DNA of 64,000 nucleotides from the NCBI GenBank assembly GCA_944393575.1, contig CALYAP010000066.1:14300-78299 (forward strand). Reading direction: 5' to 3'. This DNA comes from an uncultured Clostridia bacterium (lineage in GTDB: Bacteria; Bacillota; Dehalobacteriia; UBA4068). A model generated the notes under the pieces. That model saw only the letters and a program-made list of their open reading frames with translations. It had not been told where the DNA came from and made no database searches. Positions 37,173 to 41,151 of the stretch are shown here, piece by piece. Positions within the stretch are counted from its first letter, which is position 1. Each line of letters begins with the position of its first letter. Position numbers and translations under genes: made by a program.

Positions 37173-38183
37173 ATGAGAAGAAAAAGCTTATCAATCATTT
37201 TAATTATTAGTATATTTGCTATCGCTTTCGCTTCTTGTGAATTTCAGTCAGCTGATCATTCGAAGACAGAAACTAGTGAGCCTGTTGGTAAATCATTGCT
37301 GGTTAAGATCGCTTATGATGTGGCGCCAACGCATTCGCTCCATGAATCTTTCCTCGATTTGGAGCAATGGTTGGAGGCAGAAAGTGCCGGACGGATAGAA
37401 GTGGAGCTATATCCTCTGTATGAGTTAGGCGACGATGCAGACCTACTGGCTTTGACCGCTGAAGGAGTGATTCAGATGGCTGTTCCGCAGACTTCGTCAT
37501 TAGCTTCATTATCGGTTGAGGCTCCTGATGAGTATCCCTTGGATATTCCACAAAGTTGGCAGATTTGGGATAGTTTGGATGGATTTTACCAATATGATAA
37601 TGCTGAGTCAGCGGCAGCTGCTGTTGAGGGTAGTCTTGGTGCGCAAATGGTGGCCTCTCTAGCTGATCTGGCTGATCAGCCGTTTAGCTGCCTGGGGTAT
37701 GCCTATGAAGGGCCTTTAGCTATTGGTGGCACAGTTGATATATTATCACCAGCAGATCTTGCCGGACAAAGGATGGCTCTTTATGGCTCTCCGGCGTGGC
37801 TTTCTGCATATCAGTCTTTAGGGGCAGAGGTGGTAGTATTGCCGCTTTCTGAAATTTATCCTGCCTTGGCTCGAGAGCAGATTGATATTTACCAAGCAAC
37901 ACCTGAAAATATTGCTACTATGCATTGGACCGACTATTCTAATACCATTATCCTGACAGAACACGCTTACTCTTTCCGGCCTCTGCTGGTTAACCGGCAA
38001 TGGTATCAGTCTCTCAGTGAAGAAGACGCTTATTTGATCGATACTGCTGTAGATAATCTGCTCAGCCAGCAAAAGACATTAGCTGTAGAACGTTATCAAA
38101 GCAGCATTGATGCATTGAAGCAGCAGGGAATAAGCGTCCACTCTCTGACACCAGAAGAACAGGATCTATGGCGTAATTATTGA
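37173..38183 (+). CDS. TRAP-transporter solute-binding protein (DctP family) lipoprotein, orphan
   Basis: Signal peptide plus lipobox FASC. DctP-like fold. No dctQ/dctM partner in the window. Confidence 0.6.
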   Translation: MRRKSLSIILIISIFAIAFASCEFQSADHSKTETSEPVGKSLLVKIAYDVAPTHSLHESFLDLEQWLEAESAGRIEVELYPLYELGDDADLLALTAEGVIQMAVPQTSSLASLSVEAPDEYPLDIPQSWQIWDSLDGFYQYDNAESAAAAVEGSLGAQMVASLADLADQPFSCLGYAYEGPLAIGGTVDILSPADLAGQRMALYGSPAWLSAYQSLGAEVVVLPLSEIYPALAREQIDIYQATPENIATMHWTDYSNTIILTEHAYSFRPLLVNRQWYQSLSEEDAYLIDTAVDNLLSQQKTLAVERYQSSIDALKQQGISVHSLTPEEQDLWRNY

Positions 38184-38200
38184 TCTTCATCTAGATATGT

Positions 38201-38238
38201 AAAAAAGAGCTAAGAAATTATTTCTTAGCTCTTTTTTA
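38201..38238. terminator. bidirectional terminator
   Basis: aaaaaagagctaagaaa-tta-tttcttagctctttttt. Confidence 0.75.
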
Positions 38239-38258
38239 TATGGACTTATTTGAATCAG

Positions 38259-40052
38259 TTAACCGACCACAGGAGCTTTTTGCTCTGCTTCAGCTGGCAA
38301 GACTGTTTCCATGGCTTTAGCCTGAGCTTCAGCAACACGCCGGTCTGCTTCTTCCTGTTCTAGGATTTTATAGGCTACTTTGCCGACCAAAGTACGGGGG
38401 AGTTCTTCTCTGAACTCGATATCATAAGGCATTGAGTATTTAGCAATATTTTTGCGGCAATAAGCAAATAGCTCATCTTTGACTTCCTGGGTAGGCTTAA
38501 TACCTGGTTTTAACTGTACAAAGGCTTTGATTTTTTGTATTTTCAGCTCATCCGGTACGCCGATGATGCAGGACATCAAGACTTTTTCGTGAGCATCAAA
38601 AATGTTTTCTAATGCGCTCGGATAGATATTATAGCCGGAGCTAACAATCATTCTCTTGATCCGCTGACGGAAATAGACGAAACCATCTTCATCCATCATA
38701 CCCAGGTCACCAGTATGCAACCAGGTCAGCCCATCAGCATGTTTTTTGAGCGTTTCTGCCGTCTCTTCAGGATTGTTGAGATAACCCAGCATCATCGTCG
38801 GGCCAGTCAAGCAGATTTCGCCTTCTTCACCATAAGGGACTTCTTCAGTGGTATTGACTTTAACGATTTTGTAATAGGTGTCCGGATAGGGAACGCCGAT
38901 ACTTCCTTCGCGGCTTTCGCTCAAGGGAGTCAAGCAGGAAGCAGTGACGCATTCGGTCATGCCGTAGCCCTCACGGACCTGGATGTTGGCATTATGGTCT
39001 GCCAGGAATTTATCAAATTTTTTTTTCAATTCGATGGACAGAGAATCTCCGCCGGAGAAAACGCCTTTCAAGCAGCTGAGATCAACATCATCCATATCCG
39101 AATTACGCAGCAGTGCCTCATAGAGAGTAGGAACACCGGCGATGAAATTAGGACGCTGTTTGCGCAGCAGTTCAGCATAGGTTTGGGCATTGAACCGGGG
39201 AACGAGGATGCAGGTGCCGCCATAGGATAAAAAAGTATGAATGCTGATACCGAGGCCGAAGCCGTGGAAGATTGGCATTACTGCTAAAACTCTGTCTCCC
39301 GGATCATAGATCGGGTTAACGGTAATGGTCTGCTCTGCCAAAGCGTTGAAATTGAGATTGGAGAGCAAAATGCCTTTGGTCTTACCGCTGGTACCGCCAC
39401 TATAGAGAATAACAGCTGGATCAGTGGCTTTTCTTTTTACTTCATAAGGGCCGGTATAGCTATCGCCTAAGCTCATCAGATCATTCCAAAGGATAACATT
39501 TTTATCGCTTTCTGGAACTTTGGCGATTTTGCGTCCCTCAGTCAATTTGTAACCCAATCTTTTTATTGGAGAAAGGGCGTCGCCGATATTAGCGATAATT
39601 AGCTTAGGAATAGCTTTGGTTTTAGCTATTTCCGCGAATTTAGGATAGAATTGATCTAAAGTCAGTGCTGCTACTGACTCACTTTCTTCCAAGTAAAAGG
39701 CGATTTCACCTTCGGAGGAAAGTGGGTGTATCATATTGGAGATAGCGCCGATCAGGTTTAGGGCATAAAAGGTGATTACACCTTGAGGGGTATTAGGCAT
39801 GCAAATGGTAACGCGGTCGTTTTCTTTGATGCCCATTGCCGTTAGTCCTTTAGCTGTGCGGCGGATATTGGCGATAAATTCGCTATAAGTAGTTGATTTG
39901 CCCAAAAATTCAAAAGCAATATAATCAGGATATTGTTTTGCTATCCGTTCCACATTTTCAAACATAGTAGTATCAGGATATTCAAGATGGAACGGCAAAT
40001 CACCATAGGCTTTCAGCCAAGGTGCCTTAACTGCTTCATTTGCTTCAATCAT
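38259..40052 (-). CDS. AMP-dependent acyl-CoA synthetase/ligase (long-chain fatty acid--CoA ligase-like)
   Basis: AMP-binding motifs YSGGTSGKTKG, GYGMTE and a conserved C-terminal lysine region. Start at 40052 or 40082. Confidence 0.85.
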   Translation of the reverse strand: MIEANEAVKAPWLKAYGDLPFHLEYPDTTMFENVERIAKQYPDYIAFEFLGKSTTYSEFIANIRRTAKGLTAMGIKENDRVTICMPNTPQGVITFYALNLIGAISNMIHPLSSEGEIAFYLEESESVAALTLDQFYPKFAEIAKTKAIPKLIIANIGDALSPIKRLGYKLTEGRKIAKVPESDKNVILWNDLMSLGDSYTGPYEVKRKATDPAVILYSGGTSGKTKGILLSNLNFNALAEQTITVNPIYDPGDRVLAVMPIFHGFGLGISIHTFLSYGGTCILVPRFNAQTYAELLRKQRPNFIAGVPTLYEALLRNSDMDDVDLSCLKGVFSGGDSLSIELKKKFDKFLADHNANIQVREGYGMTECVTASCLTPLSESREGSIGVPYPDTYYKIVKVNTTEEVPYGEEGEICLTGPTMMLGYLNNPEETAETLKKHADGLTWLHTGDLGMMDEDGFVYFRQRIKRMIVSSGYNIYPSALENIFDAHEKVLMSCIIGVPDELKIQKIKAFVQLKPGIKPTQEVKDELFAYCRKNIAKYSMPYDIEFREELPRTLVGKVAYKILEQEEADRRVAEAQAKAMETVLPAEAEQKAPVVG

Positions 40053-40935
40053 AATTGACCTCCTCTTTTGCAGGACGTTCAAGTAATTCTGGATGTTCTA
40101 AAAGGTATTTGACTAGACGAATGCTTTTAGCATAATAATATCCGTCCGCGATTCTTTCATCAAGAGTGACTCCTAGTTTAACAGTATCGCGCATGGTTAT
40201 ATGTCCTTCATCATCAAACCAGGGACGCATCTTTTTTTCACCAATTACTACAAATAGAGAATTGGTGCCAAAGTTGTTTAGATGATGATATGCAGCATTG
40301 AGTTTGATACTGCCAAGGTTGCTCAAGAAAATGCTCGAGTAATTGGGCTCTTCTTTGACCATTGCATAGGGGACTCTGCCGAAATAATCGAGAAAACGGA
40401 TTAACCCTGCGACAACGCGGAGAAGAAAGCGAGGGATTTTACAAAGAATATTCATTACATCGGTAGAATTATCTGTTTTCCCCTCATTACGGATACCATT
40501 GATTTTTTTATCCATGGCATCGCGTACTGTCTCCAAGGTAGCGTCTTCATCAAAATAGAGCATTAACAAAGACTCTTTACCGTCGTCGGCGAATTTTTTC
40601 TTAGCGACAAAAGCTAGTGACAGGAAACTACGTTGATAGACGCGTCGGCCAGCGATGAAACGATTTAACTTAGGCCGTAGAACCACAGTTTTCAGAATAG
40701 CCGTTGAAATCAACTGGAAAAGCGTATAGCGGAATTCTGGGTTCGACGCGTTTTTGGCGGCTAGATAAGCATCGACAGCTGTAAGATCGATAGTTTCCTC
40801 AATGAATGCTTCAGAATCCGCACGGTTAGTATAAATATACGGAACAAAGGCATGCATCGGATCTAGATCGCGCAGCCAGGTGCCATCCTTTCTGTCGCCA
40901 AAGTGACGATTGGGATTTTTCATGATTTTCTCCAA
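40045..40935 (-). CDS. 2-oxoacid dehydrogenase E2-type acyltransferase catalytic-domain protein (no lipoyl domain), DER variant
   Basis: The C-terminus LGVTLDERIADGYYYAKSIRLVKYLLEHPELL aligns to the E2 motif SxDHRxIDG...LLExP. Confidence 0.55.
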   Translation of the reverse strand: MEKIMKNPNRHFGDRKDGTWLRDLDPMHAFVPYIYTNRADSEAFIEETIDLTAVDAYLAAKNASNPEFRYTLFQLISTAILKTVVLRPKLNRFIAGRRVYQRSFLSLAFVAKKKFADDGKESLLMLYFDEDATLETVRDAMDKKINGIRNEGKTDNSTDVMNILCKIPRFLLRVVAGLIRFLDYFGRVPYAMVKEEPNYSSIFLSNLGSIKLNAAYHHLNNFGTNSLFVVIGEKKMRPWFDDEGHITMRDTVKLGVTLDERIADGYYYAKSIRLVKYLLEHPELLERPAKEEVNYD

Positions 40936-41151
40936 ACTATAATTGCGAATAAATAAAATAATAAAAATGATGATCCACCATGATTTAGACCCTAAAATCC
41001 TAGCCTAAATTCATTCAGAATTATTATACTATCATGCTTGACAATTTTCAACCCTAACCGAATAGTCATTTTATTAAGAATTGCTTAATTTACAGTAATA
41101 ATATATAATAGAAGCAGATATTATGTTGCTTATGCTGATTATTGCCAAAAT

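Follow-up and report, generated by a model that had tools for sequence, protein, structure and literature searches.

The window analysed here, a stretch of 64,000 nucleotides (64 kb) from an uncultured Clostridia bacterium, carries at 38259-40935 on its minus strand (all positions are those of the window) a pair of genes encoding a stand-alone acyltransferase-like protein of the E2/CAT fold, hereafter the E2-like protein, and an adenylate-forming ligase of the ANL superfamily. The E2-like protein belongs to a large branch of this fold that systematically lacks the catalytic His, is coupled to the ligase and linked to membranes, and that is undescribed, abundant in gut Clostridia and misnamed. 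The Glu that it carries at the ancestral His position is a hallmark of the whole family and not a local lesion. With a confidence a little short of even, we favour the view that the E2-like protein is active at the membrane periphery, where it would transfer acyl groups from acyl-CoA to lipids by means of a rewired active site, with the ligase as its own supplier. The two genes are:

40045-40926, minus strand: gene for the E2/CAT-fold stand-alone acyltransferase-like protein, 293 aa; a TTG at 40935 is a possible longer start.
38259-40052, minus strand: gene for the ANL-superfamily adenylate-forming ligase, 597 aa, with AMP-binding and AMP-binding_C domains.

The only Pfam family matched by the E2-like protein was PF00198, and this over residues 199-285 only (E 8.4e-9, 35.6 bits against a gathering cutoff of 23). 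A first-pass annotation, made from the sequence alone, had recognised the E2-type catalytic domain at the end of the protein, and the significant HMMER match bears it out; the C-terminal sequence that it quoted is present and is followed by ERPAKEEVNYD, a polar extension that reaches past the position of the E2 'knob'. The AlphaFold2 (AF2) model, built with 61 sequences, has a pLDDT of 87.3 and a pTM of 0.88, and its best 50 Foldseek matches in the PDB were all E2 cores or the E3-binding protein (E3BP), with E values from 3e-14 to 2e-11, alignments of 250-290 columns, 12-17% identity and a target TM of 0.4-0.82. The protein begins straight at the core domain and has no lipoyl or peripheral-subunit-binding domain detectable with Pfam, which also agrees with what had been noticed at first. 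A tblastn search of the 64-kb window with E. coli AceE, AceF, Lpd and SucB (E<=1) returned no E1, E2, E3 or lipoyl homologue, and neither E1 nor E3 was present in any of about 90 related loci examined. Given the PF00198 match, the E2-core fold, the lack of lipoyl and subunit-binding domains and the lack of complex partners in the window, the protein is correctly called an orphan E2-type catalytic domain. The NCBIfam E2 equivalog models gave it 10-20 bits against cutoffs of 429-722, and the hidden Markov model (HMM) of the chloramphenicol acetyltransferase (CAT) family, PF00302, did not match it at E<=1, the equivalent motif reading LDERIADG and not HHxxxDG. It is thus a divergent PF00198/E2-core branch that is not to be filed as an E2 subunit.

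The active-site motifs and the other signatures of the family are found in the window at:

40141-40161, minus strand: D256-E257-R258-I-A-D261-G262, the DHRxxDG-equivalent motif; the Glu257 codon is 40158-40156.
40282-40290, minus strand: Y213-H214-H215, the 'YHHL' motif; H214 is the candidate relocated catalytic His.
40318-40323, minus strand: Ser202-Asn203, equivalent of the E2 'T/S-N' oxyanion position (Thr323 of the E. coli E2o).
40882-40899, minus strand: the N-terminal family motif G-D-R-x-D-G, residues 10-15.
40342-40479, minus strand: an insertion (residues about 150-195) of some 45 residues that canonical E2 cores lack.

In phmmer and profile alignments DERIADG falls on the DHRxxDG of PDB entries 3mae, 3l60 and 1b5s, and in the family-HMM alignments to E. 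coli SucB and AceF the family consensus vtLDERiaDG lies over lsyDHRliDG. Since four independent alignments place DERIADG on DHRxxDG, Glu257 occupies the catalytic His column (His375 of E2o), exactly as the first-pass annotation had claimed. It had also suggested looking for homologues with the same substitution, and these turned out to be the rule. Conservation was analysed in 129 near-full-length 50%-identity representatives, which are 30-50% identical to the query. Column 257 is E in 105 of them, D in 14, N in 3, Q in 1 and S in 1, and never His; for this reason a pseudo-enzyme that had decayed in this genome only was rejected as an explanation. Around this column the motif is retained (D256 94%, R258 95%, D261 88%, G262 97%), as is S206 (93%), while the oxyanion column 202 is S in 51, T in 45 and A in 30 of the 129, with Ser in the window protein. 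An additional feature is the His pair of the YHHL motif, 12-13 residues past the Ser202-Asn203 strand: H214 is present in 127/129 members (98%) and H215 in 123/129 (95%), which places both among the most conserved positions of the family. The intact members with N, Q or S at position 257 all retain H214. The persistence of D256, R258, D261, G262, S206, H214 and H215 points to purifying selection on an active-site-like pattern.

R12 and D14 of the GDRxDG motif are kept in 86-88% of diverse members. The insertion has predicted helices at 153-161, 166-181 and 187-190, conserved P165 and P186, and a hydrophobic/amphipathic helix, IPRFLLRVVAGLIRFLDYFG; it is a candidate membrane- or lipid-contact element. 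As for the loop that carries His214, an hhalign comparison of the family profile with single SucB covered no more than the last 43 columns at the C-terminus, and HMMER run without its filters yielded two short blocks; this loop is longer by about 4 residues in the family, and the E2 residue that matches His214 can therefore be placed only to within a few positions. The matching loop presumably provides Leu160 of the CAT acceptor pocket and Ser330 and Ser333 of the E2o acyl pocket. Literature searches on the E2 loop motif and on E2b active-site residues returned nothing relevant.

The second line of evidence is the partner. The ligase matches PF00501 (E 7e-79) and PF13193 (E 7e-15), and its core motifs YSGGTSGKTKG, GYGMTE and WLHTGDLG and the C-terminal GK are intact in the translation. 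Among solved structures it comes closest to A. fulgidus FadD-1 (3g7s, E 3e-61), with 4-coumarate ligases and luciferases next. It is thus an intact ANL enzyme, closest to the FadD and 4CL types. The first-pass annotation had called it an AMP-forming acyl-CoA ligase, of which the AMP-forming part stands; acyl-CoA ligase is its probable identity, although the protein scores below every curated equivalog cutoff (the top curated model, PRK05605, gave 386 bits against a cutoff of 766). Within this limit, it is reasonable to regard the downstream gene as one for a fatty-acyl-CoA ligase.

The pairing itself is conserved in hundreds of species. Among 80 species-representative GTDB loci, a close homologue of the ligase lies directly downstream of the E2-like gene in 69, and where the gene is complete the paired ligases are 56-93% identical. 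The two genes are also joined at the level of translation, the elements of their junction in the window being:

40047-40045, minus strand: TGA stop codon of the E2-like gene.
40045-40052, minus strand: ATGATTGA, the 8 nt in which the two genes overlap, with the start codon of the ligase and the stop codon of the E2-like gene.
40059-40065, minus strand: Shine-Dalgarno sequence GAGGAGG of the ligase, inside the last E2-like codons (E-E-V).

In about 55 of about 66 paired junctions the ligase starts between -20 and +3 nt from the E2-like stop, most often at -8, and in those junctions the codons for the conserved EEV(D/N)Y(D/E) tail of the E2-like protein contain GAGGAGG; an identical 8-nt overlap is found in the complete genome of Oscillibacter hominis (CP060490.1). 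The recurrence of the start/stop overlap with the embedded GAGGAGG in about 55 junctions suggests that translational coupling, which had been read from the overlapping stop and start in this one locus, is a conserved property of the module. As a side observation, it may be mainly as a nucleotide sequence, namely the ribosome-binding site of the partner, that the EEV(D/N)Y(D/E) tail is conserved.

Both open reading frames (ORFs) noticed initially were borne out, and only their lengths had to be corrected. The start of the E2-like gene is most likely the ATG at 40926, which has GGAG 7 nt upstream, and homologues likewise begin MKNPNRHFGDR; the protein is then 293 aa long instead of 296. For the ligase the most likely start is the ATG at 40052, which gives 597 aa and not 600 or 607. 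On either side of the pair lie two further elements:

41023-41051, minus strand: promoter-like TTGAAA-17-TATAAT (11/12), a hit of a consensus scan only, which does not in itself show function.
38196-38242, no strand assigned: hairpin with 20 paired bases and A and T runs on its flanks, between the convergent ligase and DctP-family genes.

The promoter-like site is about 95 nt 5' of the E2-like start, in a divergent intergenic region of 225 nt shared with a LigT-like gene. The hairpin is long and nearly perfect (AAAAAAGAGCTAAGAAAT...ATTTCTTAGCTCTTTTTT), and since A/T runs flank it, it could be used as a terminator by both convergent genes; it is likely a bidirectional terminator that closes the operon. 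With a promoter-like site of their own upstream and a terminator hairpin downstream, the E2-like and ligase genes appear to form a two-gene operon.

The third line of evidence, which links the family to membranes and lipids, comes from relatives of the window protein. Antisense ORFs of high-GC loci were left out of the neighbourhood clusters (cluster 2; in locus L010, a 571-aa ORF without Pfam match). Some relatives are fused to N-terminal polytopic membrane domains, GtrA-like in protein P0128 and PAP2-like in P0248, and four more (P0214, P0236, P0252 and P0259) have 3-7 N-terminal hydrophobic or transmembrane helices; in the membrane-fused relatives a basic linker runs from the transmembrane region directly into GDRxDG. 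The GtrA-fused E2-like gene has an AMP-binding ligase 1 nt downstream. One particular PAP2-like membrane protein recurs, as a gene or as a domain, in several arrangements: as the first gene of a PAP2-like, E2-like and ligase array in loci L054, L070 and L080, as a gene that replaces the ligase 3' of the E2-like gene in L066 and L074, fused to the E2-like protein in P0248 (residues 1-235), and adjoining a membrane-fused member in L084-L086. The PAP2-like genes are at:

L054, 3633-4310; L070, 1918-2583; L080, 4310-4948; L066, 5902-6549; L074, 5892-6548; L084, 7712-8389 (coordinates of the respective locus).

This PAP2-like subfamily conserves the motifs DDxIPFxE, LRP, PSxH and KQHxxxD and matches PF01569 and PF14378 weakly; sequence comparison gave no relative in the PDB, and no curated NCBIfam name applies to it. 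Genes related to diglucosyl-diacylglycerol synthase and to CrtO lie beside the membrane-fused members in L084-L086 (7712-11203), while in L087-L089 (2901-5415 and 10993-11763) the membrane-fused members follow genes for a PIG-L-type deacetylase and GT2-GtrA proteins, with Lgt downstream. L084-L086 and L087-L089 may be glycolipid-modification loci. A membrane-anchored glycerophosphodiester phosphodiesterase (GDPD) is encoded upstream in L001, L013, L066 and L074; in the first of these, from O. hominis (CP060490.1, 6198-12447), genes for GDPD, a DUF2238 membrane protein, the E2-like protein, the ligase, an aldo/keto reductase and an acyl-acyl carrier protein (acyl-ACP) thioesterase follow one another on one strand.

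A dedicated acyl-transfer module, which the first-pass annotation had proposed, is the best reading of the pair. Of the two uses that it had offered, lipid or secondary-metabolite tailoring, the membrane-domain fusions and the PAP2-like and glycolipid neighbours favour the former over the latter. The ligase would take a free carboxylic acid, most likely a fatty acid of medium or long chain, and convert it by way of an acyl-adenylate into a thioester, which is most likely acyl-CoA. The E2-like protein, peripheral on the cytoplasmic face of the membrane and perhaps held there by the inserted amphipathic helix, would hand the acyl group on to an acceptor associated with the membrane, for example the head group of a lipid or glycolipid, a lyso-lipid or diacylglycerol. 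Lipid synthesis in Firmicutes generally runs on acyl-ACP and acyl-phosphate, not on acyl-CoA, and a private ligase would therefore make sense.

Loss of the textbook His need not mean an inactive protein, as the E. coli E2o shows: H375A and D374A each cost only 54-fold, H375W retains 60% of the activity, and His375 was concluded to stabilise the oxyanion and not to act as a base (PMC5986005). The equivalent of Asp374 is conserved in the family as D256. In CAT, H195A costs 9e5-fold (PMC8146983). Its loss matters little where the acceptor is a thiol, but transfer to an O- or N-acceptor would call for another residue as the base. We propose that His214 may supply it, with Glu257 as its hydrogen-bond partner or as an oxyanion ligand; alternatively, Glu257 itself could be the base. 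We favour His214 over Glu257 for this putative role, since column 257 tolerates N, Q and S whereas His214 does not vary.

Several observations weigh against an active lipid acyltransferase. His214 sits in a loop of lower confidence in the AF2 model (pLDDT about 68); the oxyanion Ser/Thr is Ala in 30/129 members. The many 'long-chain-fatty-acid--CoA ligase' models that match the ligase do so well under their cutoffs. A transmembrane segment is lacking in the window copy, none of the genes around it (LigT-like, nitroreductase-like, HIT-like and DctP-family) is a lipid gene, and across the loci no neighbour except the ligase is conserved in more than about 20%. Finally, literature searches found no experimental or bioinformatic account of the family or of the gene pairing.

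Comparison with known systems helps to define what is new. With the E2 cores (PF00198; SucB 1C4T/1E2O, AceF 4N72 and B. stearothermophilus 1B5S) the family shares the fold over about 250-290 columns, the P-x-x-N helix motif, the (S/T)-N-x-G strand, D-x-R-x-x-D-G and the C-terminal LLE-P-ELL, and from this common fold and these motifs a CoA-binding channel at the subunit interface is presumed. Unlike the E2 cores, to which it is 12-17% identical, the family has neither a lipoyl nor an E3/E1-binding domain, has replaced the His, and adds the invariant His pair, the insertion of about 45 residues and the N-terminal GDRxDG; its partner is an ANL ligase and not E1 and E3. Among systems in which an E2 catalytic domain works without a lipoyl domain of its own is the E2o-like domain of actinobacterial OdhA/Kgd (PMC10415282), which, in contrast to the E2-like family, is fused to E1o, has the canonical His and makes succinyl-CoA in the tricarboxylic acid cycle. 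CAT is likewise a stand-alone soluble protein of the same superfamily, for which the acyl-CoA donor is established, but it depends absolutely on His195 of HHxxxDG.

There are two further parallels. In mycobacteria, PapA5 and WS/DGAT-type transferases of the CAT superfamily esterify lipids, and the FadD/FAAL enzymes with PapA5 or WS/DGAT resemble the present pair in that an acyl-activating ANL enzyme is paired genetically with a CAT-superfamily transferase; the analogy is one of function only, PapA5 and WS/DGAT belonging to other sub-families (with condensation-like and WES domains) that retain HHxxxDG and show no detectable sequence similarity, no direct comparison having been made. The heterocyclisation (Cy) domains of nonribosomal peptide synthetases (NRPS) have an acidic DxxxxD in place of HHxxxDG, with catalysis moved to other residues, and so offer a precedent for a superfamily motif replaced by an acidic one; unlike the E2-like family, they are embedded in megasynthases, perform a different chemistry and are not close kin. 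In its way of working, the E2-like protein would be most like an acyl-CoA transferase of the CAT superfamily that stands alone and is joined by an acyl-activating enzyme, as in the mycobacterial FadD/PapA5 or WS/DGAT systems.

Other explanations of the pair have to be weighed against this one. Thioester exchange in E2o barely needs the His (PMC5986005; PMC8146983), while D374, which is D256 here, is equally important. A motif D-x-R-x-x-D-G that is intact but for the His would therefore fit best with a thiol acceptor, and the E2-like protein could be a thiol-to-thiol transacylase that moves the acyl group from ligase-made acyl-CoA to another thiol carrier, for example the housekeeping ACP, thereby feeding exogenous fatty acids into phospholipid synthesis. 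The near-universal, housekeeping-like occurrence of the module across gut Clostridia and the acyl-ACP thioesterase gene two genes downstream in O. hominis are consistent with this role. We nevertheless judge it improbable, as no ACP-like ORF or other carrier gene adjoins the module in about 90 loci, fusions to polytopic membrane and PAP2-like domains would be unexpected for a soluble CoA:ACP enzyme, and the invariant His214 is left unexplained.

The absence of the canonical His from every member examined, together with the Ala at the oxyanion column in 30/129, could also mean that the E2-like protein does no catalysis at all and serves the ligase as an oligomeric scaffold, a membrane tether or a regulator. 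There is a precedent in the His-less E3BP of the eukaryotic pyruvate dehydrogenase (PDH) and in the X-domains of NRPS, which have lost acyltransferase activity. Tight 1:1 translational coupling is typical of obligate complexes, and the membrane fusions could merely tether the ligase. Like the E2-like family, PDH E3BP/protein X (6H60 and 6ZLM, at ranks 10 and 40 of the Foldseek matches) is an E2-core paralogue without the catalytic His, but it keeps its lipoyl and E3-binding domains, sits in the E2 core and is non-catalytic, while the E2-like family has none of these domains and shows active-site-like conservation. A decay of the E3BP kind was not found: the His is lost, yet D256, R258, D261, G262 and H214 are 88-98% conserved, and such retention of the motif and of a new His pair at about 30% identity would be hard to explain for a pure scaffold. 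Moreover, in L066, L074 and P0248 the E2-like protein occurs without an adjacent ligase but with a PAP2-like gene or domain. A purely structural partner is for these reasons an unlikely description of the family.

A third alternative keeps the chemistry and changes the acceptor. As a stand-alone protein with the same fold as CAT, the E2-like protein might O- or N-acylate a soluble or amphipathic small molecule, such as a bile acid, sterol, polyamine or xenobiotic, with acyl-CoA made by the ligase. The concentration of the family in gut and rumen Clostridia, Christensenellales included, would suit such an activity, and orphan bile-acid acylations exist, reviews stating that the enzymes for FA-isoBAs (fatty-acid esters of iso-bile acids) and for the 3-O-acyl bile acids of Christensenella are unidentified (PMC12345280). 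The bile-acid lead comes from this literature context only, with no sequence link found: a Christensenella bile-acid 3-O-acyltransferase was pursued as a candidate and dropped, as it could not be tied to any protein family, and a linoleic-acid preprint makes no mention of the E2-like family. In 11 loci (L016, L027, L029, L030, L033, L034, L036, L042, L044, L045 and L075) the 3-4 kb directly 5' of the E2-like gene carry, on its strand, genes for an XRE-cupin regulator and a PotABC-like ABC transporter, which would accord with a small-molecule substrate. The family is, on the other hand, also present in non-gut metagenome-assembled genomes (MAGs), for example one of Christensenellales from an anaerobic reactor and one labelled Spirochaetaceae, it has no tie to any biosynthetic gene cluster, and the membrane and PAP2-like fusions and the glycolipid-gene neighbours favour membrane acceptors; we therefore give a small-molecule acceptor a low probability. 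A GH25 muramidase-like surface protein is encoded downstream of the ligase in about 10 loci. The PotABC and GH25 neighbours may be a matter of lineage synteny, or they may be tied to the pair by function, as in the acylation of polyamines.

That the protein belongs to a 2-oxoacid dehydrogenase complex as a true E2 subunit, as its public names, its PF00198 match and its E2-core fold would have it, is hardly credible for a family that lacks the lipoyl and peripheral-subunit-binding domains and the catalytic His throughout, has no E1 or E3 in the window or in about 90 loci, is consistently partnered by an ANL ligase, and scores 10-20 bits against equivalog cutoffs of 429-722.

The family of the E2-like protein is large. 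At least 6830 relatives of the E2-like protein were found at E<=1e-3 in a 90%-clustered database, a full scan of 50%-identity representatives gave 1885 clusters at E<=1e-3 and 391 at E<=1e-30, and at least 586 GTDB genomes or species carry a relative. The carriers are overwhelmingly Clostridia from gut, rumen and anaerobic digesters, with labels that include Oscillospiraceae, Christensenellales, Lachnospiraceae, Blautia, Ruminococcus bicirculans, Anaerovoracaceae, Emergencia and Butyricicoccus, plus one Spirochaetaceae. The only public names of the family are 'hypothetical protein' and '2-oxo acid dehydrogenase subunit E2'. The latter name, given automatically to P0048, P0063, P0079, P0109 and P0248, is a domain-level over-annotation that recurs in many of the Clostridia genomes compared by source name, and thousands of genomes carry this wrong label on the family. 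Within the CoA-dependent acyltransferase superfamily the family represents a large and uncharacterised branch whose members systematically carry another residue in place of the textbook catalytic His, and, if active, it would be a natural experiment on the importance of the E2/CAT His and on active-site relocation.

A bolder form of this view, which we consider rather doubtful, is that in this E2/CAT-fold family the catalytic His has migrated to the His214 loop, leaving a carboxylate at the ancestral site, and that with its private ligase it carries out an unrecognised acyl-CoA-dependent esterification of free dietary or host fatty acids in gut Clostridia, the acceptor being a glycolipid, a phospholipid or a host sterol or bile acid. 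Gut Clostridia are not known to use acyl-CoA for lipid synthesis. If true, this pathway may supply the missing enzyme for orphan lipids such as acylated glycolipids, triacylglycerol-like storage lipids and iso-bile-acid fatty-acid esters, and the family is a concrete, testable candidate for the way in which these Clostridia, abundant in gut and rumen, would consume free fatty acids and form acylated lipids, be they of the membrane or derived from the host. The idea is approachable with two small soluble proteins and with cultured carriers (O. hominis, R. bicirculans and relatives of the Blautia and Christensenella MAGs).

In the window the pair is surrounded by ORFs with similarity to groES/groEL (from their translations), LigT-like phosphoesterase, nitroreductase, HIT, NfeD and flotillin. 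A DctP-family (TRAP-type) solute-binding lipoprotein is encoded at 37173-38183 on the plus strand, with no DctQ or DctM membrane component adjoining; its gene is flanked by groES on one side and by the convergent ligase on the other. That the region might be a defence system or a mobile element was rejected on the grounds of its uniform base composition, its housekeeping surroundings and the synteny kept with the closest MAGs, and two MAGs of uncultured Clostridia/Firmicutes share 92-95% protein identity with the window.

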